Shown: positions 3,155-27,674, numbered from the stretch's first letter. The stretch is DNA of 64,000 nucleotides from Mesorhizobium sp. (GCA_049647745.1 JBARYG010000002.1:13383-77382); one strand, 5' to 3'. Notes: generated from the letters alone by a model not told the origin. Program-made: numbers and translations.

Positions 3155-3295
3155 CTACGCGACGGCCATGACAACGACCATCCCGATGACGATCAACACG
3201 AGACCGCCGGCCAGCATCGGTAGGAGCGTGGTTGACGAAGGTGCCTCCTGCTCGTTGAGGTGCTGATCCTGCTTCTTGTCGTTGCTATCGGTCAT
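3155..3295 (-). CDS. Small tail-anchored membrane protein (46 aa), last gene of the DUF2249 operon
   Basis: MTDSNDKKQDQHLNEQEAPSSTTLLPMLAGGLVLIVIGMVVVMAVA. The ATG lies inside the last codons of the upstream ORF (overlap). One clear TM helix. Too short for the supplied ORF track. Confidence 0.3.
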   Translation of the reverse strand: MTDSNDKKQDQHLNEQEAPSSTTLLPMLAGGLVLIVIGMVVVMAVA

Positions 3296-3557
3296 TGAAC
3301 GGCTTCTCCGCGTCACCTCGCCTTTCGACATTGCCCGTCATCGGGCTCAGCCGATGCAGCAGTCCATTGAAAATTCGCCATCGTGCCGGGTCTTCCAGGC
3401 GCAGCACGGCGCAAGCCCGTGCAGCAAGGCCGCATGCCGCATCAGCCTGCTCCGCAGCGGCCAGGGCTTGAAGGCTCGCACACAGGATCTCGCAAAGTTC
3501 ATCCACTATCGGTGCGGATACATTCTTAGCTTCTGTTTTATTGGAATCGCTCACCAT
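3285..3557 (-). CDS. Hypothetical 90-aa protein
   Basis: ATGGTGA start/stop overlap with the upstream Nfu_N-DUF59 gene indicates translational coupling. No family recognised. Confidence 0.45.
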   Translation of the reverse strand: MVSDSNKTEAKNVSAPIVDELCEILCASLQALAAAEQADAACGLAARACAVLRLEDPARWRIFNGLLHRLSPMTGNVERRGDAEKPFNDR

Positions 3558-4189
3558 CCGTCCCCATCAGCGATACCGAGGTGGCGTTTGGCCTCGACGC
3601 TCATCATCTCCGGGGTCCAAGGCGGTTCATAGGTGAGCTTCACGTCGACGAATTCGATGCCGAGGACCGACCATGCGGCATCCCGCGCGCCATCCTTGAG
3701 ATAGTTCGTCGCCGGGCAACCGCGTGTCGTCGTCGTCATGGTGATATTGGCGACGCCGCCGTCTTCAACCGCGACATCATAGATAAGACCGAGGTCGACG
3801 ATGTTGTAGCCGAGCTCTGGATCGATCACCAGCCGAAGCGCCTCCTTGACGGTTGCGACGATAGCTTGCGCTTCCGTCGAGCTCCCCTCGCCGGTGGCTT
3901 GGGCGGGCGCCAGAACGACGGGCGCACCCGACATGAAATGTTCCATGATGGCACCGAGCAACGCCGGCTTCAGATGCTGCCAATCGCCGCCGCTTTTCGT
4001 GATGGTGATGGTGTCGGTGCCGAAAGATAGCGCCGCGACGCCATCAATATTGAAAAGCTTGGCGGCGAGCGGCGAGCGGGCGGCGGCCCCCCGGTCCTGG
4101 ATTGTCAGCGTTCCCTCAGCCAGGACCTGCCGGCCGGGCAGGAATTTGAGGCTCGCCGGGTCCGATGTTGCTTCGGTCTGGATGAACAT
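3551..4189 (-). CDS. Nfu_N (NifU N-terminal-like) - DUF59 (MIP18/SufT-like Fe-S assembly) fusion protein
   Basis: Start chosen at ATG 4189 (MFIQTEATSDPASLKF...). The N-terminal half resembles the Nfu/NifU N-terminal scaffold domain. The C-terminal half (VIDPELGYNIVDLGLIY...TTTRGCPA...YEPPWTPEMMS) is a typical DUF59. Confidence 0.7.
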   Translation of the reverse strand: MFIQTEATSDPASLKFLPGRQVLAEGTLTIQDRGAAARSPLAAKLFNIDGVAALSFGTDTITITKSGGDWQHLKPALLGAIMEHFMSGAPVVLAPAQATGEGSSTEAQAIVATVKEALRLVIDPELGYNIVDLGLIYDVAVEDGGVANITMTTTTRGCPATNYLKDGARDAAWSVLGIEFVDVKLTYEPPWTPEMMSVEAKRHLGIADGDGW

Positions 4190-4218
4190 GTCGAAGGCTC
4201 CCGAAAGGGCGTTTAGGA

Positions 4219-4764
4219 TTAGGCCATGTCTGGCAGCGGCGCGCCCCTGGAACCTCCGATTCGCACGAGAATCTTGTAGGTGGCGCCGTCGGGCTCGAAG
4301 GCTCCCTTCCATGCGTGTCCGCGCTTTGCGAGTTCTGGAAGCAGAAATATCGGTTCGCGGCAAAGAAGCGCCGACATCACCTCGCCGGGCGCCATCTCCT
4401 CGGTTGCGGCCAGTATCCTGACCATGGGCTCGGGCGGGTCGAGGTCGCGATTATCCATGTTCCGGAGCGGCTCCGGCCAGGTGCCGTGGTCGCCAATTAC
4501 CGGTGCGTCAACCTTAGCCGGCCTGGGTGCGGCATTAGACGGCGAGAACAGGACCTCCCAGTCGCCCCCGTCCAATTCGCGCATTTCGTGTTCGAACCCC
4601 CTGGAGCCGAGGACATGCAGCAGGGGCACGGGCTTGAACGTCGCAACCAGGCGCAGTCCCTCGCCGGGCCTGAGTGCGTCCACCGCTGCCATGATTTCGC
4701 CGAACGGCTCGCCACCGGCACGCAGGGTCGGACGTACGTCGACGTCGACAAAAGATGTCGTCAT
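4219..4764 (-). CDS. Tandem DUF2249 domain protein
   Basis: ATG 4764 is preceded by GGAGGC. Two repeats of the DUF2249 pattern: VDVRPTLRAGGEPFGEIM...LRLVATFKPVPLL, and LDPPEPMVRIL...REPIFLLPEL. Confidence 0.7.
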   Translation of the reverse strand: MTTSFVDVDVRPTLRAGGEPFGEIMAAVDALRPGEGLRLVATFKPVPLLHVLGSRGFEHEMRELDGGDWEVLFSPSNAAPRPAKVDAPVIGDHGTWPEPLRNMDNRDLDPPEPMVRILAATEEMAPGEVMSALLCREPIFLLPELAKRGHAWKGAFEPDGATYKILVRIGGSRGAPLPDMA

Positions 4765-4780
4765 GATTGCCTCCAATGAT

Positions 4781-6136
4781 CTAGTCATGTTTTACGGAGC
4801 AGTACAGCAGCTGGGGCACGCGCACCCCGAGCGGCAGGCGTGTCGCAATGTTGACGTCGAGCAGCCGGCGGATACGCACCAACTGGCCGACGATGCCGAG
4901 GCTTGCGATGAGCATCAGTCCGGTGCAGATCTGGAACGCCATCGGTATCGCGAGCAACAAGGCGGCGGTCGCGGCCCACACGGCGCCGAAATAGAGGAAG
5001 AACCACCTGATGCCGCGACGCTCGACCACCAGGTCCTGCACCCTCGGCGTTACCGTCTTGCCAAGTACCGGTCCGTAGCATTCAAGCCAGGTCAGGAAGG
5101 CTGTGATCTTGTAAAGCTTGGCCAGCCCCAGCCCGGACAGCCAGCCGAATGCGACAAGAAAGGCGACGGCAGCAACGTGCCGGGCGAAAATGCCGAGAGC
5201 GGCCAGCACCACGATCAGAAGCACGCTCGCGGCGAGACCGGCCATTGCGAAGACGGCCATCCTGCTGTTCAGTTCGATCACTCGTCGCCTCCGCGCCCGG
5301 TAAAGGCGCGCGATGTCCGCGCCGTAGAGGACAAGCGCGCACAGGCTGAGCAACCCGGCCGCAAGCAAGACCGGTGTCAGGCTTGCCGTGAGACAGATCG
5401 CCACCACACCGCCGAGGATGGTGACAGCGAGTGCGGCAGTCCCGCAATAGAAGCCCACACGCGAGCGTGGGCTGTCAAGTTCGGGCGCCAGCATGAACAT
5501 TGCGAGAAGCCGGTAGCTCACCCCTATGGCGGTGAACGTCAACCAGCCGCCGAGCCCGGCGATCGCGTGCAGCGGCACACCGTTGGCGACGACGTCGGCA
5601 AGATGTGGATTCTCGGTGACCCCACCCAGCACCATGGTGAAAATGATACCGAACGTGACGGTCGCGGCAAGGCTGCAAAGACCGACGGCGACAAAGCGGG
5701 CCGGCAAGGGCAACGGACGGGCAGCCCAGAGCGTACGGCCGAGATTCCACAAGGCAAGGCCGAAGCCGATGGCCAGAAGAGCGGCGGCCACCGGAAAGAA
5801 GGCGAACGCGGTGGAGACGAAGCCGCCCATTTGCAGGAAGCCGAGAAGAAGTGCCGCAAGCCCAACGATCAGGCATACGAGTGTCGGCAGCGGCATCGAT
5901 TCGCTGTAGAGGGTGCGCGCCACCAGCACCGGAACGAACTGGAACAGTGCCCCGCACATGAGCAGGCTGAGCCAGCCCAGCACGACCAGATGCACAAGAA
6001 CGAGTGTCGACGCGGATTCCACCGGAGCACTAGGATAACCATATCCGAGTGTCATCAACAGTTCGGCGGCAAGGAACGCGATCAGCGCTGCCGCGAAGTA
6101 AGACATCGTCCAGCGGGAAAGCGTTGCGCCGAGCAC
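4781..6136 (-). CDS. Polytopic (about 12-14 TM) membrane protein of unknown function
   Basis: 451 aa, almost entirely hydrophobic helices. GTG start preceded by AAGGAA. Segment VHLVVLGWLSLLMCGALFQFVP is faintly reminiscent of heme-copper-oxidase subunit-I helices, but canonical ligand motifs were not seen. Confidence 0.7.
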   Translation of the reverse strand: MLGATLSRWTMSYFAAALIAFLAAELLMTLGYGYPSAPVESASTLVLVHLVVLGWLSLLMCGALFQFVPVLVARTLYSESMPLPTLVCLIVGLAALLLGFLQMGGFVSTAFAFFPVAAALLAIGFGLALWNLGRTLWAARPLPLPARFVAVGLCSLAATVTFGIIFTMVLGGVTENPHLADVVANGVPLHAIAGLGGWLTFTAIGVSYRLLAMFMLAPELDSPRSRVGFYCGTAALAVTILGGVVAICLTASLTPVLLAAGLLSLCALVLYGADIARLYRARRRRVIELNSRMAVFAMAGLAASVLLIVVLAALGIFARHVAAVAFLVAFGWLSGLGLAKLYKITAFLTWLECYGPVLGKTVTPRVQDLVVERRGIRWFFLYFGAVWAATAALLLAIPMAFQICTGLMLIASLGIVGQLVRIRRLLDVNIATRLPLGVRVPQLLYCSVKHD

Positions 6137-6211
6137 GATCGCGTTCCTTTTTTGGCGGTAGCGATGGTAGCGGTGCCGGCCGTTGAGCCGCCGGCACCGC
6201 TACCGGCGAAC

Positions 6212-6472
6212 TCAAGCAGCTTTCACCATGCGCCCGATCTCGACGCGCCATACCTGCGGACCCCTTTCCAAATAGGTCCAGGAAAACTGCTGCGGGTGTT
6301 CGGCCTCAAGCTGATAATAGAGCGGCTTTGGGTCATGATCGTTGACCAGGACAAACGAGCCACCCGGTATGAGTTGTCCCACAAGTTCGAAGATCTTTGC
6401 GTGTCGCTGTGCCGGCACGAGGCTTCGAACGTCGATTTCGCTGGCGGTGGAGGCCGATTGTGTCTGAGGCAT
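6212..6472 (-). CDS. DUF2249 domain protein (single domain), first gene of the operon
   Basis: Start at ATG 6472 (MPQTQSAST...). EIDVRSLVPAQRHAKIFE...VLVNDHDPKPLYYQL...WRVEIGR fits DUF2249. Confidence 0.7.
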   Translation of the reverse strand: MPQTQSASTASEIDVRSLVPAQRHAKIFELVGQLIPGGSFVLVNDHDPKPLYYQLEAEHPQQFSWTYLERGPQVWRVEIGRMVKAA

Positions 6473-6582: not shown

Positions 6583-6597
6583 TTCACGTGTAAAAGG

Positions 6598-6612
6598 TAT
6601 ATTGTCAATATA
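6598..6612. promoter_or_regulatory. AT-rich perfect palindrome TATATTG-T-CAATATA upstream of the DUF2249 operon
   Basis: 7-1-7 palindrome in otherwise GC-rich DNA, about 125-140 nt upstream of ATG 6472 and just inside the IS66 remnant boundary. Confidence 0.3.
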
Positions 6613-6641
6613 TCTTTTATGAATCGATTCGGGCCCGCAGC

Positions 6642-6839
6642 CTACTTGGCGGTCCGAGCTATCGTTCGCCACGGCGACAAGTGGTTTGACTTCAGCCCAT
6701 GGCCGTCCGCAACCTCGTTCACAGTCGCGCCCGGTCTCAGGCTCTCCGAAACGATCATGGTCTTGACCTCATCAGGCCATTGCCGATGTCCTCCGCGTCC
6801 CGCCGTTCCAGTCGTGAGAATCTCCAGCGTGGTCTCCAT
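6642..6839 (-). mobile_element. IS66-family accessory protein TnpA, N-terminal remnant
   Basis: METTLEILTTG..RQWPDEVKTMIVSESLRPGATVNEVADGHGLKSNHLSPWR resembles the first ~60 aa of IS66 TnpA. No TnpB or TnpC follows. Confidence 0.55.
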
Positions 6840-7151
6840 GGAGAAACCTCCGCCCGTCCGTGGAAAGTCGACCACAGATCACCGCAGACGGAGCAATGTG
6901 GGGGAAGAACACCGGTTACGTCGAGCCGCTGCAGCGGACAAGTGATGCGGCGTGCGGCGGAGTTAATTTTGTGAGCCAACGTGGTAAGCTTGCAGCCGCT
7001 CAGGCCGGTATCATCTTCTTCTTGAGGCCGTTTCAGGCGATGGTCGCGCGAGGTAGGACCTTGTCGATTACGCCCTCGCCGAAGGCACAAATCAAGGTTA
7101 TAATTGTAGCGTCCGCGAGCGAATAATAGACGCCTCACCCCCGTCCGGCGA

Positions 7152-7388
7152 TCAAATGTCCTGATTGCTGGGCGTGCGTTTCCCAAAGGGAATAACCGCC
7201 CATGCTCGTTCATGAAGATAATACAGCACGACTTTTGTGATTACCTCGATACTCGCGATTGACCCCGCAAATTTGAGATTGCCGGTGATCAGCCAACTCA
7301 GGATAAATGTATCGATGCTTCCGGTCACTCGCCAAGAGACTGCCTTTGCAATCGAGCGGGTATGCGAGTCGCGGCTGGGGAGAAACAT
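7152..7388 (-). CDS. DUF2061 membrane protein
   Basis: 78 aa with KAVSWRVTGSIDTFILSWLITG...IEVITKVVLYYLHERAW, the DUF2061 signature. Confidence 0.7.
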   Translation of the reverse strand: MFLPSRDSHTRSIAKAVSWRVTGSIDTFILSWLITGNLKFAGSIASIEVITKVVLYYLHERAWAVIPFGKRTPSNQDI

Positions 7389-8174: not shown

Positions 8175-8411
8175 CTAGAGAGTTGACATAATCCGGATCA
8201 TATCCGGGGGCCTCGAAATAGTTCCGGCATTCCTCAGTGGTAAAAGCTGGCAGTTGATCGGCAACGACTGACTGCCGAGCAGTTCGGTTACGACCGTGAC
8301 TTCGCTGCCGTGTTTCTTCGCCAATGCCAAACCGTGGTTGACGCCAACCCATACCACCTCGGAGTCATCGGTGGGAATGGGGATATGGCGGTATATGCTC
8401 GCCCATTCCAC
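8175..8411 (-). pseudogene. USP N-terminal remnant
   Basis: IYRHIPIPTDDSEVVWVGVNHGLALAKKHGSEVTVVT matches the first ~40 aa of a USP and then loses similarity. Confidence 0.45.
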
Positions 8412-8699
8412 TCAGTGAAAGCCAAGCGCGCTCAACGCCGCCACTACGGCCAAGGCGGCGCATCCGAGAAAAATGACGTAGTTCATTGTAACCTCGTTGG
8501 GAGCTGATCAGATGTGCTGACCTTAGCCCGCCGGTAGAATGGCTGCTTTGCGTTCGCGCAACAAAAGCGCAGTATACCAAGGTCGTACATGCGTGAATTG
8601 ACAGATGGACGCTCGAAAAACCGGCTTGGTGGGGCCGACGGTGCCATAATGGCAGGCTGATTTCAGTGCTTGGGCGGATTTGGCGCTGCGTTTGACGGC

Positions 8700-9095
8700 C
8701 TGCAGTGCCGATAAGGGCGTTTCCCGGTATTCTGGACAGACTTATGCCGTGATCGCAAACTTTTCGTGGATGGGCGAACACATGCTCGATCCTGGCACGG
8801 ATCGAGGACTTGGCTGCATTGGCCCGCGCGGTCGCGATCGGCATCGACTTGCCTTTGGGCTTGCGCCGATGAATGCGACTGGTCAGCATGTGATCGTCCA
8901 GCCAGGCCTCGTTGCTCTGTGAGCGGTAGGTGCTGTCGGCCCAAACCTCGCTGCCGGTGTTCTGCCTGTCGATGACCTGGCGCAGCATCCGGCCATCGGA
9001 ATGAGATGCCGAAGTCACCGCCACAGCCCGGATGAAGCTATAGCGCCGGTCGTTGCGGGTGTGGCTTTTGTAGCCGAGAACAGGGATGGCGATCG
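8700..9095 (-). mobile_element. IS5-family DDE transposase fragment (boundaries approximate)
   Basis: IPVLGYKSHTRNDRRYSFIRAVAVTSASHSDGRML..VWADSTYRSQSNEAWL..RIHRRKPKGKSMP..RANAAKSSIRARIEHVFAH. No N-terminal part is present and the frame decays after EHVFAH. Confidence 0.6.
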
Positions 9096-9695
9096 CTACG
9101 CGAGGCGAATGTGCCTAACTTCAAGGCCCTTCTTGCCATGCTCGCATTCGATAAACACCTTCTGCGTCTCCATCAGTCCTGCAAGCCCTGATCGGGTCAA
9201 TGCTGATGCATGAACAAAGACGTCTTTTTCACCGTTCTCCGGAGTAATGAAGCCAAAGCCCTTTTCGGCATTGTACCACTTAACCGTGCCCCCGCTTTCC
9301 TGCCGCGCGGAGGATCCTCCAGCTAAATTTCCGCTGGGCTGCAAAATCGGCGTGGGCTTTGTGATCTCCCTGCTGATTTCCAGTACTTGTGCGATCTGAG
9401 GGCCTTTGAGGCTCTCCTCGATCCTGACCTTGAGGCGCATTCCCTCGGAAACGCCATGGCATCCAGCGGCTTCCAGCACATGGATGTGCAGATAGGCTTG
9501 CGAGCCATCTGATACCTCGACGAATCCAAACCCCCTGTTCACATTGAACCATGCCACCTCGGCATCGATAGAAGCCGTGCTCATGACAGTTTGCCGCTGG
9601 AAGTAACTTGGCTCGGTGACTTCCTTGGAAAGCAGGTCAAGCTGATCAGAACGGCCACGCCGATGCGGCTCCCGATGCTTCCTGTATCTACCCAT
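9096..9695 (-). CDS. Protein with two cold-shock domains
   Basis: Two CSD cores: [22 protein letters not shown] and [29 protein letters not shown]. Start taken at [14 protein letters not shown]; ATG 9584 is an alternative. Confidence 0.8.
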
Positions 9696-10136
9696 GATCG
9701 TCTCTATCGGCTCGGAACGTGTGCGCTGCGTCCCTGTCGAGATAATTCCTGTAGGACGGAGAACTTGTGTCAATGACCATGGTGGCGCATAGCGCCCTCA
9801 TGACAAAGCCCCCGGCTCTTCTCCAAAACTCCACCATGAGGGCCACATCCTTGCAGGGGATGAAGACCGTATTTTGACCTGGCCTCGGATCTATATCCCA
9901 GCCCGCCAAATTCGCTCCTAGAGTGATCCTTTTGCGTATAGCGGCGGCTTTGTCGTTGCGCTAGGACAAGTAAAATGTCGCGACGCTGGGTGCTTATTCG
10001 ATGAGCTTCCGGCGCCCGGCGTACCGGGGCTTATCGAGTAGCCCGACTTTCTGGCTGGATTCGTTTACGTCCGAATAGAGTCCGTTTGACCTGCCACTGA
10101 ACTGTCATCCAGCGGCGATTAGAGTATCCGTTTTGA

Positions 10137-11080
10137 TCAAGCGCATTTTGGCGTCCATTTTCTGCGTGCGTGAAGAAGTGCGTTGGCGAGGACGATGAGC
10201 TTTCGCATGACGGCGGTGATGGCGACCTTTTTTGGCTTTCCGGCCGCGACGAGCTGGTCGTATTTGGCTTTGAGGTCGGGATTGAAGCGGGCCGCTACCA
10301 GGGCTGGCATATAGAGAGCTTGGCGTATCTGCGCCCTGCCACCATGAACGAAGGCTCGTCCCGTCCACTGGCCGGACTGGCGTGTTTGCTGCGCCAATCC
10401 GGAAAGGCTCGCGGCCACGCTCTGGTCGAGGGCGCCAAACTCCGGCATCTCGATGACGAAGGTCGCGGCGGTGATCTCTGCGACGCCGGGGATCGAAAGA
10501 AGGATCGCGTGCCGCGCCGCCAGATCGGGCTCTGCGGCGATGCGCGCTTCGATCTCGTCGTCGATGGCCGCGAGTTGACGATCAATCTGCTTCAAACGCT
10601 CGGTGTTCTGGCGCTTTGGTAGCGCGAGCGTCAGGGCTTGCCCCTATTCCTGGCCGCTGCCCTGTCCTTGACGAGAGCCTGCCGACAGATCAGCAACTCC
10701 TTGAGATCGCTTAAGGCAACACTGTGGACCGGTCGCGGTTCAAGCGCGAGGCACTCGCCCATGCGGGCCAGCAAAGCGGCATCGAGGCGATCGGTCTTGG
10801 CCAGGCGTCCGATGGCTTGTGCAAAGCGTCGGGCCTGTCGAGGATTGACCTTGACGACAGGCAAGTGTGCCTCCGCAAGTCGTCGTTCGAGGAGGCGATG
10901 ATAAGCCCCGGTCGCCTCGAAGACGATCCGGGCAGGCACCGGACCCTGTGCCGATATCCAGTGCAAAAGCGCCGTCAGGCCGGGCTTGTTGTTGGTGAAC
11001 TGCCGGGTATCGCCACCAGGCACGCGGCAAACGTCGAGCGTGGCTTTCGAGATATCGATGCCGATGGTAATATCTGTCAT
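10137..11080 (-). mobile_element. IS110-family transposase, split by a frameshift in a C4/G4 run at 10641-10644
   Basis: N-terminal DEDD part is MTDITIGIDISKATLDV (10631-11080). The C-terminal part (open from 10643) is ..LPKRQNTERLKQIDRQ..SIPGVAEITAATFV..QSGQWTGRAFVHGGRAQIRQALYMPALVA. The two frames join at AGGGGC. Confidence 0.8.
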
Positions 11081-11276: not shown

Positions 11277-11735
11277 TCATAAGACAGCCTCGACCGTTTC
11301 TGTTCCGCCGTTTGGCGTGGGTTGAGCAGCCAGCGCAGCGCTGGAGCCGGTTGCGGCGATAATCGCGGCGAAGGCCGCTGGGGTCTGGTAGCCGAGCGAG
11401 GAATGGGGTCTCGCGGTGTTGAAGTCCTGCCTCCATTCGGCGATGGCGCTTCGGGCGTGGCCGAGGCCAAAGGACAGGCACTCGTTCAAAAGCTCGTCGC
11501 GCATTCGGCCGTTGAAGGATTCGACGTAGCCGTTTTGCATCGGCTTTCCCGGCGCGATGTAGTGCCACTCGACGCGATGATCCTTCGACCAGGCGAGGAT
11601 CGCGTTCGAGGTGAACTCGGAAACGATCATGCCGGGCTTGCCACGCTCGGCGATCAGGTCCGTCAATTCGCGAGCGACACGGCGGCCGGAGAGCGAAGTG
11701 TCCGGGATCGCGGATTGAAACCAATCCGGCCATAT
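11277..11735 (-). mobile_element. IS3-family OrfB (integrase-core) C-terminal fragment
   Basis: [64 protein letters not shown]. No OrfA or N-terminal catalytic part. Confidence 0.75.
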
Positions 11736-11851: not shown

Positions 11852-12676
11852 TCAGTCCACGAACGCACGCTCAACGACGAATTCGGCCGGCATCGAGTTT
11901 GACCCTTCAGTCAGGCCGGCCATTTCCACCAGCGCCCTGACATCGCGGATCATGTCCATCGAACCGCAGATCATCACCCGATCAACGCCCGCGTCAAACG
12001 GCGGAACGCCGAGATCCGCGAACAGCTTGCCGCTCTTGATCAGAGAAGTGATGCGACCGATACGCACATGAGGTTCGCGCGTAGCAGTCGCGTAGTGGAA
12101 GAAGCGATCCTGAACGAGATCTCCGATTAGCGGGTCCTCGACGAGGTTCTTCGCCAGTTCCTCACCATAGGTCAGCTCGGCCACCTCGCGGCAGGTGTGG
12201 GTCAGGATAACCTGTTCGAACTTGTCGTAAGTTTCCGGACCACGCACGATACTGGCAAAGGGCGCGATGCCGGTCCCGGTCGATATCATCCACAACCGCC
12301 TGCCCGGCGTCAGCGCATCGAGGACCAGCGTTCCCGTCGGCTTGGCGCGCAGCAATATGGTGTCGCCCGGTGTGATTTTCTGCAGGTGACTGGTCAGCGG
12401 ACCATCCGGCACCTTGATCGACAGGAATTCCAGTTCCTCGTCCCAGGAGGGGCTGGCGATGGAGTAGGCCCTGAATACCGGCTTCATCGCATTGGGCAGG
12501 CCAATCATCACGAACTCGCCCGGGCGGAAGCGAAAGCTCTGTGGCCGGGTGATACGGAACGAGAACAACCGGCCCGTATAATGGCGCACGGAGATCACCT
12601 TCTCGGCGTGAACCCCAACGGGAGGCGGAAATTCGCAAATGGCGGCGTCTGTCTGCTGGCGCACTGCTTGTGTCAT
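11852..12676 (-). CDS. fpr: Ferredoxin-NADP+ reductase (bacterial Fpr type)
   Basis: 274 aa with FSFRITRPQSFRFRPGEFVMIG, RAYSIASP and MISTGTGIAPFASI, the FNR-fold FAD/NADP motifs. Confidence 0.9.
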   Translation of the reverse strand: MTQAVRQQTDAAICEFPPPVGVHAEKVISVRHYTGRLFSFRITRPQSFRFRPGEFVMIGLPNAMKPVFRAYSIASPSWDEELEFLSIKVPDGPLTSHLQKITPGDTILLRAKPTGTLVLDALTPGRRLWMISTGTGIAPFASIVRGPETYDKFEQVILTHTCREVAELTYGEELAKNLVEDPLIGDLVQDRFFHYATATREPHVRIGRITSLIKSGKLFADLGVPPFDAGVDRVMICGSMDMIRDVRALVEMAGLTEGSNSMPAEFVVERAFVD

Positions 12677-12828
12677 TTTTGGTATCCTGTTTGTCGATGA
12701 TCGATGGGGAGCGAGTCCTAACCGTTAAAACCAGGCTGATGGGCCGCCGCAGCAATCGGGTAGCGCCGCGCTGCCGACACGCTTCCTGTCTATGCCGAAA
12801 AGCCCCTCCTGGCACGGCAAGTGCCTTC

Positions 12829-13821
12829 TCAAACGGAAGTCCAGTTTCCGTCATGCGACAGGATATGGGCCTCGACGCCGACCATGCCTTCAAGCACAGC
12901 CATGATCTCCTTGACGTCCATCAGATTGAAGGCGGTGGAGAGCGCGTCGGCAAGCGCCGCCTGCCCGGCCACGACGGTGACACCGGCATGACGCTGGGGC
13001 GTGGCCCCGCTGCGCGGATCGATGATGTGGCTGAATTGGCCCTGTGCATCAAAGCGAAAGCCGAACGGGCTCGACGTGGCCACGGCGCGGTCCTCCACTT
13101 CAAGTACTTTGAGGACGCGAGCCGTATCGAGCGGATCGGAAATGCCGACCCGCCACCGCCTGTCATTCCACGCCGGGCCGATAGCGCGGCTCTCGCCCAT
13201 GTCGACCATGGAGTGCTCGATGCCACCGGCCTTCAGTAAGTCCACTACTTTGTCTGTTATATAGCCTTGGGCGATCCCGTTGAGCGTGATCGCAGAGCCC
13301 GAAACCGGCAATTCGATGCGATCAGACGAGCAAGCGACCCGATTGAGGCCGACACGGGCAAGGCACTCCCGCAGCACCTTGGCCGAAGGGCCGGCTTCCG
13401 AGGCACCGGGCGACGAGAAGTGGCGCCGATAGGAATCCCACAGCGGCTGCACGGTGGGATCGAAGGCACCACCGGTGAGCGCACAGGCATCACTGCTTTG
13501 ACGCAATATCTCCACGAGTTCCTTCGGCGGCGAGACGAGGAAGCGCTGCCGGTTGAGCAGGGTGAGGTCGGAATCGTCACGGTAGAGGCTGAAGATGCGC
13601 TCCAGCCGGCGTACCTCGGCGACCGTGGCTTCCACCAGCTTTTGCGCCTTCGCGCGGTCCGGATGATGGATGACAAGCGAAGCCTGCGCGCCCATCGCCT
13701 CACCCTGCCATGTCACTACTTCGGGCATGGCCGCAGCGCTCCCGAACGGCAGCAGCGCCATGCCGGTCGCGGCGGCGCTGATGCCGATCATGCGACGGCG
13801 GGTCATCGGTCCGGAAATCAT
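12829..13821 (-). CDS. nosX: NosX, ApbE-family FAD:protein FMN transferase
   Basis: ATG 13821 lies 2 nt after the nosL stop, with GGAGG upstream. Tat-type TRRRMIGISAAATG. ApbE-like body. The longer 463-aa ORF extension is Arg/Pro-rich and overlaps nosL. Confidence 0.9.
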   Translation of the reverse strand: MISGPMTRRRMIGISAAATGMALLPFGSAAAMPEVVTWQGEAMGAQASLVIHHPDRAKAQKLVEATVAEVRRLERIFSLYRDDSDLTLLNRQRFLVSPPKELVEILRQSSDACALTGGAFDPTVQPLWDSYRRHFSSPGASEAGPSAKVLRECLARVGLNRVACSSDRIELPVSGSAITLNGIAQGYITDKVVDLLKAGGIEHSMVDMGESRAIGPAWNDRRWRVGISDPLDTARVLKVLEVEDRAVATSSPFGFRFDAQGQFSHIIDPRSGATPQRHAGVTVVAGQAALADALSTAFNLMDVKEIMAVLEGMVGVEAHILSHDGNWTSV

Positions 13822-13822
13822 G

Positions 13823-14362
13823 TCAGTGAACCTCCCCAGAAGACGCAGGCGCATCGCCGTCGCCGGCTTGCTGCTCCAGAATGTAATCGCGCGGAACGGC
13901 ATCGAAGCGCACGACTTCGCCGCCATGGTCGCCGGCAAAGGCTTTCGCCGCCTCTTCGGTGGAGAAGGGTACGGCCTCGGCGGCGCCCATGCCGCCCTTC
14001 CGGTTGCTGCCAATAACGAAGAATGCCTGTCGGGCGTCCACCCAGTTGTCGGCCCCGGGTTCGTCCCATGTCGGCGCCTTGGCCATGTCGGAGACATAGA
14101 TCGCGCGGATATCCTTCGGCTCCTCCGGCAGCATGGTGAAGGCGATTGCGTCGCGGGCAGACGAAAACCAGATCGGTTCATCATATTTGGCGAGGATGAC
14201 CTGGCCCTTGGGTCCAGCATGTTCGAGGATGTTCATGCCGCAATAGCGCCCCATTGCGTCCTCCGTCATGGCGAAGGGCGTGGGCGGCGCCTCCGCCTCG
14301 CGCTGGCAGGCGCCGAGCGCCAGCAGGCCGGCGAGGATCGCAATCGTCAAGCGCGGTCTCAC
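13823..14362 (-). CDS. nosL: NosL copper-chaperone lipoprotein
   Basis: GTGA overlap with the nosY stop. Lipobox LLALGAC. MGRYCGMNILEH motif typical of NosL. Confidence 0.9.
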   Translation of the reverse strand: MRPRLTIAILAGLLALGACQREAEAPPTPFAMTEDAMGRYCGMNILEHAGPKGQVILAKYDEPIWFSSARDAIAFTMLPEEPKDIRAIYVSDMAKAPTWDEPGADNWVDARQAFFVIGSNRKGGMGAAEAVPFSTEEAAKAFAGDHGGEVVRFDAVPRDYILEQQAGDGDAPASSGEVH

Positions 14363-15189
14363 AGTTCTCTCCTCGAAAAGGCGGCCGCCGCCAGCGCCAT
14401 CGGCGCAACGACCCACGCCGCGAGCGCGGCCAGCAGTGCAGCCGGCCCCAGCGCTGCGTTCTGCACGATGTCGGCCATGCCCGAAGCAGCCGCGATATCG
14501 TCCGATCCGGCAAGGTTGAACAGGCGGTAGGCGTCGGTCGGATTAAACAAAAGCAGCGCATCCAGCACCCCGCCACTGACGAAGTGCCCCTGGTCGGCGA
14601 CCAGCAGCCCCAGCAGCGCCATGTCGTAGAGGATGACGAACACCAGCCAGATGCCAATGGCGATGCCGGCGGCGGTGCCTCGGTCGCGCGCCAGCGCGCT
14701 GACCAGATAGCCGATGGCGACGAACACCGCGCCAAGCAGCACCGAGGAAGCGGTCATCATCATGAACGCCGCCCAGCTTCCGCCACCGATCGCCTTGCTG
14801 GTGGCCATCAGTGCCACCGCCGAAAGCCCGTAGCCAACGCAGGTGGCGAAGGCGAGGATGGCGATATGGCCAAGGAATTTGCCGAACAGAACCTGGCTGC
14901 GTCGAACCGGATAGGAGAGAAGCAAAGTCATGGTGCCGCGATCGATCTCGCCGACGACGGCGTCGTGAGAGATGAGCAACGCGATCAGCGGCACGATGAA
15001 GATGGTGAGGCTGGCGAGGCTGATGACGACGACGTCGAGCGCGCCGGCGCCGACGGTGCCGGTCGGCGCGCTGCCCAGAAAGGCAAGCGTCAGCGCCAGC
15101 GCCGCCAGAAGCCCGGTCGCCGCCAACACCCAGCGATTGCGCAGGCCCTCGCGCACCTCCTTGGCCGCAAGTAGAAGGATCGTGTTCAT
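14359..15189 (-). CDS. nosY: NosY ABC-2 type permease
   Basis: 276 aa, six hydrophobic helices, and position between nosF and nosL. Confidence 0.9.
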   Translation of the reverse strand: MNTILLLAAKEVREGLRNRWVLAATGLLAALALTLAFLGSAPTGTVGAGALDVVVISLASLTIFIVPLIALLISHDAVVGEIDRGTMTLLLSYPVRRSQVLFGKFLGHIAILAFATCVGYGLSAVALMATSKAIGGGSWAAFMMMTASSVLLGAVFVAIGYLVSALARDRGTAAGIAIGIWLVFVILYDMALLGLLVADQGHFVSGGVLDALLLFNPTDAYRLFNLAGSDDIAAASGMADIVQNAALGPAALLAALAAWVVAPMALAAAAFSRREL

Positions 15190-16103
15190 CTGGAAGTCCT
15201 CCCGGCCAGGAAATGGGCGTAGAGTTCGTCGAGGCCAGGCGGAACCATATCGAGGTCGACGAAGGGTACACCCTCGCCTGCGGCACGACGCAGGAAGGCG
15301 GCCTTGTCCTCCGGCGTGGCATCCAGTTCGATGATATGACCGTTGATCTGCTTCAGGCCGGAGGGCTCACCTATCCATTCCCGCAAGCGCTGGGCGCCGC
15401 CCTCAGCGGCTCTCAAACGGATCCTGGTCGGCAGCCGCGCGATGTGGCGCAATTCATCCAGAGAACCATCGGCAATCTTGCGACCCTCGTTCATGATGAT
15501 GACGCGGCCGGCATTGCCTTCCAATTCGTTCAGCGCATGCGAGCATAAAAGCACGGTGGCGCCCGCCGCACCCATTTCGCGCACAATCCCATAGAACTGC
15601 TGGCGCAGTTCCGGATCGAGCCCGGTGGTCGGCTCGTCCAGCAACAGCACCGCAGGCGTGCCGATCATGGCCTGAGTCAGGCCCAGCCGCTGGCGCATGC
15701 CCTTGGAATAGGTGCCGACGCGCCGGTCTGCCGCGTGGGCAAGGCCAAGCCGTTCAAGCAGCCCATCCTCTTCTTTAGGCCTGCCTCCCTTGAGCCGGAC
15801 ATAGAAGCGCAGCGTCTCGCGGCCGGTCAGCGCGGGATTGAAAGACACGTTCTCCGGCAGGTAGCCGAGCCGCCGGCGCACGGCGGCGTCGCCTGCCGCC
15901 GGATCCTGGCCAAGCACGGCGACGGAGCCGGCGGTGGGACGCACGAGCCCCAGCATCAGCTTGATGAGCGTGGTCTTGCCGGCGCCGTTGTGGCCCACCA
16001 GTGCAATCACCTCGCCGGGGCCGGCCGAAAAGGACACGTCGTCCACTGCCTTGACCGGGCCGTAATGCCGTGCTGCCGACTTCAGTTCGACATTGAGGCT
16101 CAT
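15186..16103 (-). CDS. nosF: NosF ABC transporter ATPase
   Basis: ATGA overlap with the nosD stop. Walker A GHNGAGKTT and Walker B LLLDEPTTGLD. Confidence 0.92.
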   Translation of the reverse strand: MSLNVELKSAARHYGPVKAVDDVSFSAGPGEVIALVGHNGAGKTTLIKLMLGLVRPTAGSVAVLGQDPAAGDAAVRRRLGYLPENVSFNPALTGRETLRFYVRLKGGRPKEEDGLLERLGLAHAADRRVGTYSKGMRQRLGLTQAMIGTPAVLLLDEPTTGLDPELRQQFYGIVREMGAAGATVLLCSHALNELEGNAGRVIIMNEGRKIADGSLDELRHIARLPTRIRLRAAEGGAQRLREWIGEPSGLKQINGHIIELDATPEDKAAFLRRAAGEGVPFVDLDMVPPGLDELYAHFLAGRTSR

Positions 16104-17479
16104 GGTGTCTCCGTTTCCTTGATGCCGTCCGGCTTCATCAGCGGATGATTGTCGACGACGCCGCCGGGGAAGACCGTTGGAAAGCGGGCCTGCGCCCAGC
16201 GGATCACCTGAACGGCCGGGCTGTTGACCAGTACCTTGGCCGCCGGCGCTTCCCACAGCACGCGGTCGATCATGTCGTTCGGGCGGTAGGGATTATCGGC
16301 AAGCCCGTCGCCGTCGAGGTCGAAGGCGGGATTGTCGCTCCAGTAGTTGCCGCGCCCCCCGCTCGACCAGTCGAGCGAGCGGGTGCCGACATACTTGACC
16401 TGATTGCGGTTGCGTACGAAGGCGTTGCCGCTCATGGCGTTGCCCTCGGAGCCGGCAGTGAAGTGCACGCCGATCTCGCAGCCCTCGAAGAGGTTGCCGG
16501 AGAAACGATTGCGGTTGGCATTGTAGATGAAAACGCATTTTTCAGGGCCGATGCGCATCCCCTTGCGTAACCCGACCGCTTCGCTGGCTTTGGGCATATC
16601 CGGATCTGCGGCGAAACGCTGGCCGTTGCTGGTCCAGCGCTCGGCCGGCTGCGCACGGCCACGCACCACGTTGCCGCTGATCTCAGAAGCGTTGGCGTAA
16701 TTGAAAAGAAAGCCATTGTCACGGTCGCCGTCCGAGACGTTACCGGTGACCTTGAGGCGGTCGGAATACATGATAGCGTAGCCAACGATATTGCCGGTGG
16801 AAACGTTATCGGCGATCACGCTGTTGTTTGTGTACATATAGTGGACGGCGAAACGCAGGTTGCTGAACCTGTTGCCGCGGAATTCGTTCTTCTTGCTAGC
16901 ATTGGCGAAGATGCCGTCGCGGCCAAAGCTGATGTCGTTGTCGAGAACTTTGGCCCCAGGCGAATTCCATACCGAAACGCCGTTGCCGGAACGGCTGGTG
17001 CGCCCTTCGCTTAAACCTTCGATGCGATTGCCCCGCGCCACTGCATCCTGAGCGCCATGAAGTTGGATGCCGTAGAGATTGCCGACGATGATGTTGTCCT
17101 CTATGAGCGCGCGCGTGGCGGTCGGCGCGGCGAATACGCCGGCGTCCAGCGTGTCCAGATCCATTCCCGAACCTTCGATGCGAAGGTTGCGAACGGCGGC
17201 GTCCGGTGCTTCCAGCAGGACGACACTGCCACGGCCATCGCCTTTCAGCACTGCGCCCGGTTCGCCCTGCAGCGTCAGTGCCTTGGAGATGACTACCGGA
17301 CCAACATGCATCCCAGGCGCGAGGCGAACCACGTCACCGGGGTTCGCGCCGTCCACCGCGACCTGCAAGGGCATGGTGTCGGCAGGCACGGCTATCTCCG
17401 CCGCGCCCGCCGGATGGCCGGAAATGGCGGCAAACAGCGCCACCATTCCCATTATCGCGTTATGGAAAGTACGAGCCAC
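16100..17479 (-). CDS. nosD: NosD periplasmic beta-helix protein
   Basis: 459 aa, signal peptide, and repeated parallel beta-helix units (NxIxxN) as in NosD. Confidence 0.92.
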   Translation of the reverse strand: MARTFHNAIMGMVALFAAISGHPAGAAEIAVPADTMPLQVAVDGANPGDVVRLAPGMHVGPVVISKALTLQGEPGAVLKGDGRGSVVLLEAPDAAVRNLRIEGSGMDLDTLDAGVFAAPTATRALIEDNIIVGNLYGIQLHGAQDAVARGNRIEGLSEGRTSRSGNGVSVWNSPGAKVLDNDISFGRDGIFANASKKNEFRGNRFSNLRFAVHYMYTNNSVIADNVSTGNIVGYAIMYSDRLKVTGNVSDGDRDNGFLFNYANASEISGNVVRGRAQPAERWTSNGQRFAADPDMPKASEAVGLRKGMRIGPEKCVFIYNANRNRFSGNLFEGCEIGVHFTAGSEGNAMSGNAFVRNRNQVKYVGTRSLDWSSGGRGNYWSDNPAFDLDGDGLADNPYRPNDMIDRVLWEAPAAKVLVNSPAVQVIRWAQARFPTVFPGGVVDNHPLMKPDGIKETETP

Positions 17480-17482
17480 GTC

Positions 17483-19414
17483 CTAGGCGCCCTGCGGTTC
17501 CACGAGCATGCGGCCCTGCATCTCCATGTGCATGGCGTGGCAGAACCACGAACAGTAATACCAGTAGACACCTGGCTTGCTGGCAGTGAACGTCACTGAG
17601 GCAGTCGCCTGCGGCGCCACTTCCATGTTGATGCCGTAGTTGACGATGGCAAAGCCGTGGGTGAGATCCTCCACCTCGTCGATATTCGTGACATAGACGG
17701 TGACCTCATCGCCCTGTTTGACGTTGAAGCTCTCCAACCCAAAGGCCGGCGCGGAGGACGTCATGTAGACGCGGACCTTGTTTCCGTCGCGGATCACCTC
17801 ACTGTCCATCATCAGGTCGATGCCATCGGCTTTGGCCTGTTTGACAGCATCCTCAAAGAAGGGATCCGCCCTATCCCAGATGCTGATCGGGTTGATCTTC
17901 GAGCGATGGACAAGTGTGGCGTCATGAGGCTCGGCGAAGCTTGGACCGTCATGTACGAGCACCATCTGATCGCCTGAAATATCGATCAACTGGTCGTTCT
18001 CCGGCTTCAGCGGACCAACGTTGAGATAGCGATCCTTGGAGAACTTGTTCAGCGAAATCAGCCATTTGCCATCCGCTTCCTTGGTCTGCCCCATGGACGT
18101 ATGGTTGTGGCCGGGCTGGTAGTGGACATCAAGCTTCTGACGGATCGGATCGACCTTCTCACCGGCGAAGGAACGCTTGGCATCCTCGATGTTCCACTTG
18201 CAGATCTGGCTGTCGATGAAGAGTGTGGTGTAGGCGTTGCCACGGCCGTCATATGCGGTATGCAATGGCCCAAGTCCCAATTCCGGCTCGGCGACCACCG
18301 TGTCGCGCGGCTTGATCTTGTCATCGAATAGATCGTCGAACTTACGCACGTCGAACACGGTCACCGTCGGCGACAACTTGCCGTTTGCCACCACATGGAT
18401 GCCGTCCGGCGCAGTGTTGATGCCGTGCGGGCTGTTGGCCACGGGCACGTAGCGGGTGTAGGGCGAGCCGTGGCGCCCGTCGACGACCGGCACGCCGCCC
18501 ATCTCCTTGAAGTCGCCCTTCTTGACGGCTTCTTCGATGCGCTTGAGGTTGAAGATGACGATCCAGTCCTGCTCCTTCGCCATCATCTGCTCGAGGTTCA
18601 CGCCTTCCTCGGAGTTGTAGCAGGTAGAGAAGGCATATTTGCCCTGATAGTCGGCATCGACATTGTCGAGATTGCCGTCGACCATAACCTGCCAGGCCAC
18701 CTTCATCGTCTCGCCGTCCACGGCGGTGAAGATCGAATGGTACTGCTTGGGATCGTCCAGTATCTTGCCGTCGTTCGGAATCGGCACGCGGTCCTCGCCG
18801 TTACAGAACACATAGCCCGTCTTCGGGTACTTCTGCACACGCAGGCCATGTACAGTGTGCTGGTTAGGCAACTGGATGATCTTGTCGCATTTCATGACGT
18901 CGAGACGGATGCGCGCGACACGGGTATTCGCCTTATCGTTGACGTAAAGGTAGCGACCGTCATAGGTGCCATCCGTCTGCGAGGGGTGCGGATGGTGCAA
19001 GTCGCCGTTGAGATAAATACCACCGCGATCCTTCAGGAACTCCTTCGTTTCGGGAAGCAGCCCTTCCGTCAGGATCTTACGGCTCTCGTTGGTTTCACCC
19101 CAACCGGTCGCACTGCAGCGGTTAAAGACCGGGATGCGCATCATCTCACGCATCGAGGGCGCGCCGACGATACGAACCTCGCCGGTCTGGCCGCTGGAGA
19201 AGAACACGTAGTATTCGTCCAGCTCTCCGGGCTTGACCTCGGCTTCCTGCTCGCCCTTCTCGTCCGCCGCGGCCGGCGATACCACGCCTCCGTTTAGTGC
19301 CAGTCCGCCACCGACCCCTGCGGCACCGGCGGCCGCCATTACAGCGGTGGTGCCCAGCAGTTGGCGTCTACTCAGAATGGCTTTCCGTTCCCGTTCGTCC
19401 TGTGACATGGTCAT
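17483..19414 (-). CDS. nosZ: Nitrous-oxide reductase NosZ (Tat-dependent, clade I)
   Basis: 643 aa. Tat signal [19 protein letters not shown] and C-terminal CuA motif [12 protein letters not shown]. Confidence 0.97.
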
Positions 19415-19432
19415 TCTCCTTGTTGTGGCCTG

Positions 19433-21766: not shown

Positions 21767-21841
21767 GTGTCCCCTTCTTTCGGCTGCTTGGGCCAAGCCG
21801 ACTTCGGAGCGCACATCTCTACGGTTTCGCGGAACGATTCT

Positions 21842-21855
21842 TTGATTCAAAGCAA
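21842..21855. promoter_or_regulatory. FNR/FixK-type box, one mismatch (TTGATTCAAAGCAA)
   Basis: Lies in the divergent nosR / ferritin-like intergenic region, 76 nt from nosR ATG 21766 and 53 nt from ATG 21908. Confidence 0.55.
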
Positions 21856-21907
21856 AGCGACGACAGATTGCGCGCCTATGCTGCCTCACAAACCAGAGGG
21901 CCATCCG

Positions 21908-22756
21908 ATGACTCGCCTTACATCCGAGCCGACGGCGTCAATCCGTTCGATGAACGAACTGCTGGCTGTCGCCATGGCGATGGAAAAGGAGTCGGCAGAG
22001 CGGTACGCCGGTCTCGCAAAGCACATGCGCACGGTCGGCCAGCAGGATCTGGCTGAAGTATTCGACCGCCTGGTCAGTGAGGAGAACGGCCACATAGGCC
22101 TCGTCGCCAATTGGTCACGGCAGATTCAGGACCGCGTGCCGGAGGTGCTGCCGCCTGAAGCCGTTCCCCAAGGCGTTTTCGATGATGAGGGCATTCACCT
22201 CGTCTCACCAGAACTGGTGGACGCCTATCGCTCTTTGGCAGTAGCCGTGCGGAACGAGGAGCGCGCCTTCGCCTTCTGGTCCTATGTCGCCGCCTATGGC
22301 GCAACGGCGGAAATCCGCAAGGCAGCCGAGCGGATGGCCAGCGAGGAGCTGGAGCATGCCAAAACGCTGCGGCGCGAACGCCGGAAGGCTTTTTTCAAGA
22401 ACAGGCACCTGAGACCGTCAGTCCAGGAAACCTACGATTTGTCCGCCCTGGAAATGGAAGTCTGCACACGTCTCGAGGAATATGCCGACATGAGCGGAAA
22501 CAAAAAGGAATATCGCGATCTCGCTCTCGAGGCGCGCACGCTCTCTCTTGATCTTGCATCGGATGCCCTGCAGGAGCCCGCCCCAGTCGGTCCACCTCCA
22601 CCACGATCTCTCGAGGCACTTTGTGAGTGGCTGGCCGACTATTATATCGACGCTGGCGAACACCTGCTTTCGCAGGCCGCCCGGGATCGGGCTCAGGCTC
22701 TTGCCACCATTGCCGTCAAGCGCCTGGCCCTCATCAGAAATCTGGGAAGAACGTAG
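21908..22756 (+). CDS. Ferritin-like / rubrerythrin-fold di-iron protein, function unknown
   Basis: AMEKESAERYAGLA..EENGH and ...NEERAFAFWSY..ASEELEHAKTL are two E..H-type helices. Start at ATG 21908; ATG 21878 is possible. Confidence 0.6.
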   Translation: MTRLTSEPTASIRSMNELLAVAMAMEKESAERYAGLAKHMRTVGQQDLAEVFDRLVSEENGHIGLVANWSRQIQDRVPEVLPPEAVPQGVFDDEGIHLVSPELVDAYRSLAVAVRNEERAFAFWSYVAAYGATAEIRKAAERMASEELEHAKTLRRERRKAFFKNRHLRPSVQETYDLSALEMEVCTRLEEYADMSGNKKEYRDLALEARTLSLDLASDALQEPAPVGPPPPRSLEALCEWLADYYIDAGEHLLSQAARDRAQALATIAVKRLALIRNLGRT

Positions 22757-23005: not shown

Positions 23006-23449
23006 ATGAAATACATAAGCTTCGCTACAGCGGTTTTCGCCGCCATGATGATGACAGGCGCCGCCTATGCGGCAGACCATCAAGTGCAGATGCTCAATAA
23101 GGGCACTCAGGGCGTTATGGTCTTCGAGCCCAATTATATCGAGGCCGCCCCCGGTGATACGGTGACCTTCGTGCCGACAGACAAGGGGCATGACGCTTCC
23201 AGCATCGACGGCATGCTTCCCGAGGGGGTGCAACCCTTCAAAGGCGAGGTCAGCAAACCGATCACCGTCACCATCGACAAGGAAGGCGTCTACGGCGTCA
23301 AATGCGTGCCTCACTATGGCATGGGCATGGTGGCGCTGATCGTCGCGGGCAGGCCGTCGAATCTGGACCAGGCCAAGACAGTCAAGCAACCGGGCAAGGC
23401 GAAGAAAGTTTTCGAAGAGCTATTCGCCAAGGTCCCCGCTGGCAACTGA
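23006..23449 (+). CDS. paz: Pseudoazurin (type-1 copper protein)
   Basis: 147 aa. Signal peptide MKYISFATAVFAAMMMTGAAYA. FVPTDKGHD...GVYGVKCVPHYGMGM carries the H/C/H/M copper ligands. Confidence 0.9.
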   Translation: MKYISFATAVFAAMMMTGAAYAADHQVQMLNKGTQGVMVFEPNYIEAAPGDTVTFVPTDKGHDASSIDGMLPEGVQPFKGEVSKPITVTIDKEGVYGVKCVPHYGMGMVALIVAGRPSNLDQAKTVKQPGKAKKVFEELFAKVPAGN

Positions 23450-27468: not shown

Positions 27469-27674
27469 GCCGCCGAGCACGGCGTCGCTGTCGAACTGCT
27501 GCACGAAGTCGACGACGCCTCCTCGAGAGCCATCGTCAGGCGACCAAGCTAATGGGATGCGATCTGATCGTCATGACGACCCATGGACGGCGGGGCGCGC
27601 AGAGATTGATGCTCGGCAGCCAAACCGACGAGGTCGTCACCCATACCGACGTTCCGGTTCTGGTGGTCCGGTAG
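27469..27674 (+). pseudogene. USP C-terminal remnant left by the IS630 insertion/deletion
   Basis: ..AAEHGVAVELLHEV.. and then MGCDLIVMTTHGRRGAQRLMLGSQTDEVVTHTDVPVLVVR* (TAG 27672-27674). There is no N-terminal half. Confidence 0.6.

Follow-up and report, generated by a model that had tools for sequence, protein, structure and literature searches.

The 64,000-nucleotide (nt) stretch of Mesorhizobium sp. DNA analysed here (the window; all coordinates count from its start) contains an intact operon at positions 3155–6472, with six open reading frames (ORFs) that all lie on the minus strand. In order of transcription, these encode a single-domain DUF2249 protein of 86 amino acids (aa) (gene 1; 6212–6472), a 451-aa membrane protein (gene 2; 4781–6136), a 181-aa tandem DUF2249 protein with two domains (gene 3; 4219–4764), a 212-aa fusion of Nfu_N to a DUF59/SufT-like domain (gene 4; 3551–4189), a 90-aa small protein that matches no known family (gene 5; 3285–3557) and, as an optional member, a 46-aa ORF with one C-terminal hydrophobic helix that overlaps the end of gene 5 (gene 6; 3155–3295). 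Genes 1–4 are separated by gaps of 75, 16 and 29 nt, the stop of gene 4 overlaps the start of gene 5 as ATGGTGA, and genes 5 and 6 overlap by 11 nt. All six ORFs and both overlaps had been described in an earlier reading of this DNA (the original prediction) and were found where it had placed them. Its domain calls (DUF2249, tandem DUF2249, Nfu_N with DUF59) were correct by profile search, and its single tight transcription unit was supported. No terminator was found 3′ of gene 6 in a consensus scan, and a megablast search of the PLSDB plasmids with the operon gave no match.

The gene 2 family comprises more than 2,250 close matches, all labelled 'hypothetical', and 926 clusters at 50% identity, with approximately 65% identity between alpha- and beta-proteobacterial members. 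The gene 2 product matched no Pfam or NCBIfam family, and sequence and profile searches against the PDB returned nothing meaningful; fold comparison alone succeeded. An AlphaFold (AF2) model, built on an alignment of 45 diverse family members, had a pLDDT of 95.1 and a pTM of 0.94 and contained 12 long helices and one short helix, in agreement with the 12–14 transmembrane helices claimed earlier. When this model was compared with the PDB using Foldseek, all 50 matches listed were heme-copper oxidase or nitric oxide (NO) reductase entries and none was a transporter. The best matches were NorB (4xyd_A, E=2e-6; also 3o0r_B) and CcoN of the cbb3 oxidase (3mk7, E~1e-5), followed by bo3, aa3 and ba3 oxidases (including CoxA and CyoB). 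The TM-scores over the full length were 0.60–0.70 (0.60–0.65 for NorB and CcoN). The membrane protein, which the original prediction had left as polytopic and unclassified, is indeed polytopic but can be classified: the model has the subunit-I fold of heme-copper oxidases and NO reductases.

Seventeen residues were invariant in the 45-member alignment, and the sole invariant histidines were H49 (helix 2) and H190 (helix 6). Catalytic subunits have six histidine ligands for two hemes and CuB/FeB, one each in helices 2 and 6 and a pair each in helices 7 and 10; the family keeps only two of them. Since the helix-7 HH pair and the helix-10 histidines are missing, the gene 2 product cannot form a binuclear O2- or NO-reducing site. 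Its score against Pfam COX1 (PF00115) was 15 bits, below the gathering score of 34.8, and sub-threshold COX1 matches were obtained for 8 of the 45 family members (best E=1.2e-8). Judged by its fold and its two histidines, the gene 2 product is an oxidase-fold protein that is neither an oxidase nor an NO reductase.

Profile–profile comparison with hhalign revealed three internal 4-helix repeats (E=6e-8 to 7e-6), in which H49 in helix 2 pairs with H190 in helix 6 and with a phenylalanine in helix 10. As modelled, the protein is a subunit-I-fold protein of three 4-helix units with a 'second-helix' histidine in units 1 and 2. The helix-2 motif VHLvxxGW paired in a weak local hhalign match with the heme-ligand motif HVHxGxLGW of CcoN helix 10. 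Homology to CcoN was not accepted from this comparison, in which the hhalign probability was 15% and helix 2 was set on CcoN helix 10; the result is informative on the repeats, but it is not proof. Helix 8 is followed by an arginine-rich loop (YRxRRRR) and helix 10 by a conserved PRVQDLV loop. The positive-inside rule puts the YRxRRRR loop in the cytoplasm, which would give the topology of subunit I, with both histidines toward the periplasmic side. We infer that H49 and H190 would lie there, level with the heme/CuB sites. Among longer family members that look like fusions, Pfam identified one with DUF2249 and gave a sub-threshold DUF2871 match, but nothing else of use.

A one-genome-per-species scan yielded at least 591 relatives of the membrane protein. 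The 80 best relatives with 10-kb flanks, the window and a Gallionella contig formed a set of 82 loci, in which the operon components were located by tblastn. The order DUF2249–membrane protein–2×DUF2249–DUF59 recurred in 80 other species-representative genomes, and the arrangement is therefore not due to chance. The tandem DUF2249 gene was present in 80 of the 82 loci and in each came next after the membrane gene (median gap 18 nt). DUF59 was present in 78 and the single DUF2249 gene in 71; in 66 of the latter it immediately preceded the membrane gene in the same orientation. The fusion of Nfu_N to DUF59 that the original prediction had reported is present in the window but is a minority variant (27/82 loci; 26 and the window). 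Its six-gene set was upheld for the 90-aa ORF, which was found in 49 of the 82 loci, always on the same strand and 0.8–1.4 kb after the membrane gene, whereas the 46-aa ORF was sporadic (6/82) and lies outside the conserved module. As delimited by these comparisons, the conserved core is one of five genes: DUF2249, membrane protein, 2×DUF2249, DUF59 and a small Cys protein. In some genomes the membrane gene is present twice, and locus L021 has two copies.

The association extends to three relatives at approximately 30% identity from other lineages, which have DUF2249 and DUF59 genes alongside. The first of these (L085) has ScdA_N, an Mrp-DUF59 ATPase, an NIR_SIR/ferredoxin gene and two single-unit COX1-like genes as neighbours, the second (L086) has CopD, and in the third (L087) the operon stands after nosRZDF..LX and before Crp, pseudoazurin and NnrS. 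The two COX1-like genes of L085 (5058–5465 and 7643–8083; 135 and 146 aa) flank the distant family member and apparently encode single 4-helix units. According to the original prediction, a known transporter family for the membrane protein, combined with missing cross-genome linkage, would have spoken against it. Pfam and NCBIfam searches with every product placed the membrane protein in no transporter family, and its linkage with DUF2249 and DUF59 was very strong and persisted at 30% identity.

The partner genes were assigned by profile search. Gene 1 matched DUF2249 (Pfam PF10006) with E=1.9e-30 and gene 3 matched it in two stretches with E=1.1e-36; the DUF2249 scores were 104.9 and 124.9 bits, above the gathering score of 29.5. 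Gene 1 has a TusA-like fold without the TusA cysteine and carries the motifs P-x-x-R-H and N-D-H-D-P-K-P-L-Y-Y-Q-L-E-A-E; in the conservation profile of the single DUF2249, P-x-x-R-H and NDHDPKPLYYQLEAE were retained. No sequence relative of the single-domain DUF2249 was found in the PDB. TusA sulfur carriers have a conserved persulfide-carrying cysteine in an N-terminal CPxP motif. At this place the DUF2249 domains have P-x-x-R-H, EPF or PPEP, with no conserved cysteine in any of them, and domain 2 of gene 3 gave a marginal TusA match in Pfam (29.2 bits vs 28.6).

Gene 4 matched Nfu_N (4e-23) and FeS_assembly_P (6e-16). Nfu_N is the only Nfu part present, the C-terminal place of the CxxC NifU domain being taken by DUF59, which keeps the cysteine motif MTTTT-x-GCPAT. 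The NCBIfam scores of gene 4 were below the SufT/SUF_assoc cut-offs (TIGR02945, 87 bits with a cut-off of 143; TIGR03406, 74 with a cut-off of 203). Gene 5 had no Pfam or NCBIfam match. Its product is Cys-containing and helical, with the core motif LA..G....ACRLAG.AC..LR...W..FN.LLHRL, and its tblastn conservation indicates that it is a genuine conserved gene. Gene 6 could also start at 3331, which would lengthen its product to 58 aa; only weak, sub-threshold Pfam matches were obtained, and no NCBIfam match exceeded its cut-off.

Approximately 120 nt upstream of gene 1 lies a 23-bp NsrR-type palindrome (AAGATATATTGACAATATACCTT; 6594–6616, minus strand) with an exact TTGACA at its centre. It is the only such box in the 64-kb window, and none occurred in 100 shuffles. 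Its inner part, GATATAT-TGACA-ATATACC (6596–6614), has the same 7-N5-7 geometry as NsrR sites. Counting k-mers in the sequences that precede gene 1 in 58 loci brought out the palindrome, and the consensus AAAAGATrTATTGACAATAyATCTTTT was present in 44 of these 58, at 65–250 nt upstream of gene 1; the window copy has one mismatch. Half-sites and spacing (GATrTAT-N5-ATAyATC) agree with the NsrR consensus gATGyAT-N5-ATrCATc (Rodionov et al. 2005; PMC1274295). With up to three mismatches, 103 boxes were counted in the 82 loci, compared with 0–2 for 29 of 30 composition-matched scrambled palindromes, and the one outlier resembles the real motif. The palindrome centre ATTGACAAT was invariant across the loci that carry the box upstream of the operon, and among box sites the invariant TTGACA centre was confined to this operon. 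Since the centre is invariant and spells TTGACA, the operator is probably centred on the −35 hexamer. When promoter consensus sequences were sought, no sigma-70 −10 element that was convincing appeared downstream of TTGACA. Control by FNR/FixK was rejected as a general rule, TTGA-N6-TCAA being present upstream in only 2 of the 58 loci.

A divergent Rrf2 gene lies upstream in 33 loci, always on the opposite strand. The representative of this cluster matched Pfam Rrf2, and its best NCBIfam model was NsrR (132.6 bits, below the cut-off). Its best PDB match was S. coelicolor NsrR (5N07, E=1.5e-20), and in the alignment Asp8 and all three cysteines of the cluster are paired. The operon is apparently switched on by an NO-sensing repressor, as predicted from the box and the divergent gene. 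The connection to NO made in the original prediction was strengthened by the NsrR-type box and the NsrR-like Rrf2 genes of these 33 loci, evidence that its reader did not have.

Elsewhere, boxes with variable centres precede ccoN (approximately nine loci), DUF6522, nnrU, an ilvD paralogue, a ferredoxin gene, DUF1127 genes and further DUF2249 paralogues. Boxes before ccoN were located at L001 10675, L011 15800, L040 983, L051 2518, L057 2523, L066 1173, L076 19412 and L052 5737, before nnrU at L051 7866 and L057 7865, and before the ilvD paralogue at L034 117; those before DUF6522 genes were found in L009, L051, L057 and L064. Dihydroxy-acid dehydratase (IlvD) belongs to a class of NO-sensitive iron–sulfur (Fe-S) enzymes. 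The same box type before nnrU, the ilvD paralogue and DUF6522 genes suggests a putative wider regulon. L005 18417 and L016 9589, like L021, are examples of genomes with a second membrane gene or with extra DUF2249 paralogues that have a box of their own.

Within 10 kb of the operon, ccoNOQP was found in 20 of the 82 loci, nosZ in 11 and pseudoazurin in 10; other neighbours were DUF6522 (21/82), DUF1971 (19/82) and Crp/FNR regulators (15/82). The ccoNOQP genes lay directly downstream on the same strand in 17 loci, often with DUF2189, ccoI and ccoS. The window itself carries nosRZD..X (12829–21904), pseudoazurin (23006–23443) and a Crp-family gene, so that nos and pseudoazurin are on the same segment as the operon, as originally noted. 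The association with nos and pseudoazurin recurred across the locus set; among the respiratory genes the commonest neighbour was ccoNOQP and not nor, nir or nnrS.

In the Aminobacter loci (L072–L074) and in L087, the operon follows directly after nosX. In the window, insertion sequence (IS)/transposase fragments (6642–6875, 8365–9024, 10137–11080 and 11277–11666; HTH_Tnp_1, IS110-type DEDD_Tnp and rve_3) part nosX/fpr (11852–14220) from the operon, and the nearest, an IS remnant ORF, ends 25 bp upstream of the box. Because of the arrangement in the Aminobacter loci and L087, the window looks like a nosX–operon layout broken by IS insertions. Among the IS debris upstream lie genes for a DUF2061 small membrane protein (7152–7388, minus strand) and a tandem cold-shock-domain protein (9096–9773, minus strand). 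Two tandem universal-stress-protein (Usp) genes (2451–2900 and 1675–2124) come right after the operon in the same orientation, with a further paralogue at 49956–50396 and fragments at 27537–27668 and 8193–8396. Usp genes occurred elsewhere in 2 of the 82 loci and are not a conserved neighbour. A rubrerythrin/ferritin-like ORF (21908–22393, plus strand) is divergent from nosR, and homologues of approximately 298 aa were present within 10 kb in 10 of the 82 loci.

We propose that the operon is derepressed by NO and that its products would protect or restore the metal centres of respiratory and Fe-S enzymes under microoxic or denitrifying exposure to NO, an interpretation to which we give an even chance of being right. 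The Rrf2 repressor would lose DNA binding when NO attacks its Fe-S cluster, by which the −35 region would be freed. The membrane protein may bind a single heme (or another metal) via H49 and H190, and the DUF2249 domains and the SufT/Nfu-like protein could dock on its conserved cytoplasmic loops. In a manner similar to that proposed for NnrS, the module would limit nitrosylation damage or re-supply Fe-S or heme cofactors; possible targets are the cbb3 oxidase, maturation proteins of nitrous oxide (N2O) reductase and dehydratases. The Fe-S repair or delivery machine of the original prediction likewise stays a hypothesis. Published work lends indirect support: SufT/DUF59 proteins serve Fe-S protein maturation at high demand and overlap functionally with Nfu (PMC8593673). 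In Thermus, when DrpA (DUF2249) was lost together with its operon partner DrpB, nitrate reductase was made but was nearly inactive (PMC6282519), and denitrification in haloarchaea induces DUF2249 genes (PMC11218638).

A bolder version of the proposal is speculative and in our view unlikely. It would make the operon an NO-triggered rescue or assembly device, in which a degenerate 'subunit I' carries heme or acts as a decoy or scaffold, the three DUF2249 domains sit on its three units and the SufT/Nfu-like protein feeds Fe-S clusters or iron. This device would keep the cbb3 oxidase and N2O reductase working, within an NsrR-type regulon that includes ccoNOQP.

Several observations weigh against NO-derepressed protection of metal centres. 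The fourth position of the box is A more often than G, and most boxes have GATATAT in place of the canonical GATGyAT. For the Rrf2 representative, the RirA score nearly equals that of NsrR, both being below the NCBIfam cut-offs. The 64-kb window contains no nsrR-like/Rrf2 gene, no cco genes and one box only; since it has no nsrR-like gene, regulation of the operon depends here on a regulator encoded elsewhere. DUF59 is not beside sufBC here, no sufBC genes being recognised among the annotated neighbour-gene clusters. The histidines of helices 2 and 6 serve separate centres in canonical oxidases, and a heme shared by H49 and H190 is therefore a conjecture. Additionally, copper proteins abound among the neighbours (cbb3, NosZ, pseudoazurin, CopD and CcoI), which fits biogenesis as well as NO protection.

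In the case of biogenesis, the operon would encode a cofactor-insertion factor for heme-copper and copper enzymes (cbb3, N2O reductase), with the membrane protein imitating subunit I in the role of scaffold or chaperone, delivery of cofactors by the cytoplasmic proteins and NO merely co-regulating. In favour of such a factor are the 17 loci in which ccoNOQP follows the operon immediately in the same orientation (20 of the 82 have ccoN within 10 kb), the position directly after nosX in the Aminobacter loci and L087, the CopD and pseudoazurin neighbours and the shared box type before ccoN in approximately nine loci. However, approximately 60 of the 82 loci have neither cco nor nos within 10 kb, the window is without cco genes, the genes known for cbb3 assembly (ccoGHIS) form another set, and the DUF59/Nfu_N partner points to Fe-S rather than to copper or heme chemistry. 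We regard this explanation as possible but doubtful. The invariable DUF59/SufT partner has no place in a signalling model, in which the operon would be a membrane-linked sensor of nitrogen oxides or O2, as proposed for DrpA/DrpB, with a hemoprotein that senses the gas and DUF2249 as the relay. Although DrpA (DUF2249) and DrpB influence how the nar and dnr operons are transcribed, DUF2249 is found in fusions with hemerythrin and receiver domains (PMC6282519 for both), and Crp/FNR-family and Rrf2 genes are frequent neighbours, the operon has no DNA-binding or kinase domain and resembles the target of the Rrf2 regulator rather than its input, and a sensor is quite improbable.

That gene 2 encodes a divergent but catalytically active terminal oxidase or NO reductase would agree with NorB and CcoN as best structural matches and with the denitrification or microaerobic context. 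The loss of all but two of the six ligand histidines, including the helix-7 HH pair and those of helix 10, the lack of a cytochrome c or cupredoxin subunit in the operon and the COX1 score of 15 bits against 34.8 make this hardly credible. We give equally little credence to an ordinary solute transporter that lies beside DUF2249 and DUF59 genes by accident, an explanation that was already disfavoured: the protein is polytopic, with 12 transmembrane helices and no sequence-based family, but none of the 50 structural matches listed was a transporter, all being heme-copper oxidases or NO reductases, and DUF2249 and DUF59 genes accompany it almost everywhere, even at 30% identity.

Proteins of this kind and their association with DUF2249 were reportedly predicted in silico by Pei et al. 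in 2014, and the operon is an ordinary member of a large family. The literature search found no experimental study of the gene 2 family. As far as this search reached, the fixed five-gene core with its small Cys protein appears not to have been described previously, and the same appears to hold for the NsrR-type operator with a regulon extending to ccoN, nnrU and ilvD and for the prevalence of the ccoNOQP linkage. The family is large and widely conserved, and it lies beside enzymes that decide the release of NO and N2O by denitrifiers. For this family, the analysis supplies a five-gene core, a likely regulator with its operator, candidate ligands (H49 and H190) and putative target enzymes (cbb3, NosZ and Fe-S dehydratases). 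The expression of cbb3 oxidase is usually controlled by FNR/FixK. If the NsrR-type boxes before ccoN are real, cbb3 expression would be NO-responsive in these bacteria, unlike in the FNR/FixK picture, and if the rescue device exists, it would represent a previously unrecognised class of maintenance system for respiratory enzymes. The operon is thus a well-defined and tractable unknown next to environmentally important enzymes.

Among known systems, NnrS is a heme- and copper-containing protein with 12 helices that occurs in denitrification clusters and is not itself a reductase. It is a membrane protein under NsrR/NnrR/NorR-type control (PMC1274295). The gene 2 product resembles it in being a 12-helix membrane protein with NO-type regulation (predicted here) and no reductase, and NnrS is a neighbour of the operon in L087. 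In contrast, the NnrS profile (PF05940) matched none of the 45 family members even at E<=1, and NnrS is not encoded with DUF2249 and DUF59; the two are separate families. NorB and CcoN are the best structural matches of the gene 2 product (E approximately 1e-6 to 1e-5), and its helix-2 histidine motif aligns with a CcoN motif, but it is without four of the six ligand histidines and a partner cytochrome c and remains below the COX1 threshold.

Like SufT/DUF59 and Nfu proteins, gene 4 has FeS_assembly_P with a conserved cysteine and, in addition, Nfu_N; the functional overlap of SufT and Nfu (PMC8593673) fits its Nfu_N-DUF59 fusion. Unlike these proteins, gene 4 scores below the SufT/SUF_assoc cut-offs, lies outside a suf operon and has no cluster-binding CxxC NifU domain. 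The drpAB operon of Thermus thermophilus (DrpA = DUF2249) adjoins the nar operon, and a sensing role has been proposed for it (PMC6282519). It shares with the present operon a DUF2249 domain and the context of anaerobic nitrogen-oxide respiration, and loss of Drp lowers the activity of a respiratory metalloenzyme (PMC6282519). The drp operon, in contrast, has neither an oxidase-like membrane protein nor a DUF59 gene.

In Sphingopyxis granuli TFA, the SGRAN_3393-3396 locus contains an operon (SGRAN_3394-3396) divergent from nsrR that is induced 100–200-fold by NO, the strongest induction there (PMC6472365). The locus is annotated as protein-traffic/TatC, SGRAN_3394 being the TatC (PMC7713065), and the 120 nearest relatives of a family member from a sphingomonad included no Sphingopyxis protein. 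With this annotation and no Sphingopyxis relative, an identity of SGRAN_3394-3396 with the operon could not be established.

The closest precedent is computational. Pei, Li, Kinch and Grishin (2014, Protein Sci 23:1220) are said to have described 'HCO homology' (HCOH) proteins as three-unit, 12-helix homologues of subunit I with two conserved histidines. Single-heme binding and a context of denitrification or NO detoxification were reportedly predicted for them. With its 12 helices, three units, two histidines and remote homology to subunit I, the gene 2 product presumably fits this three-unit HCOH description. In a passage of PMC11218638, the DUF2249 association of HCOH proteins is credited to Pei et al. 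(2014). Compared with the 2014 account, the NsrR-type operator, the fixed order of DUF2249, 2×DUF2249, DUF59 and small-protein genes and the linkage to ccoNOQP are apparently additional features of the operon.

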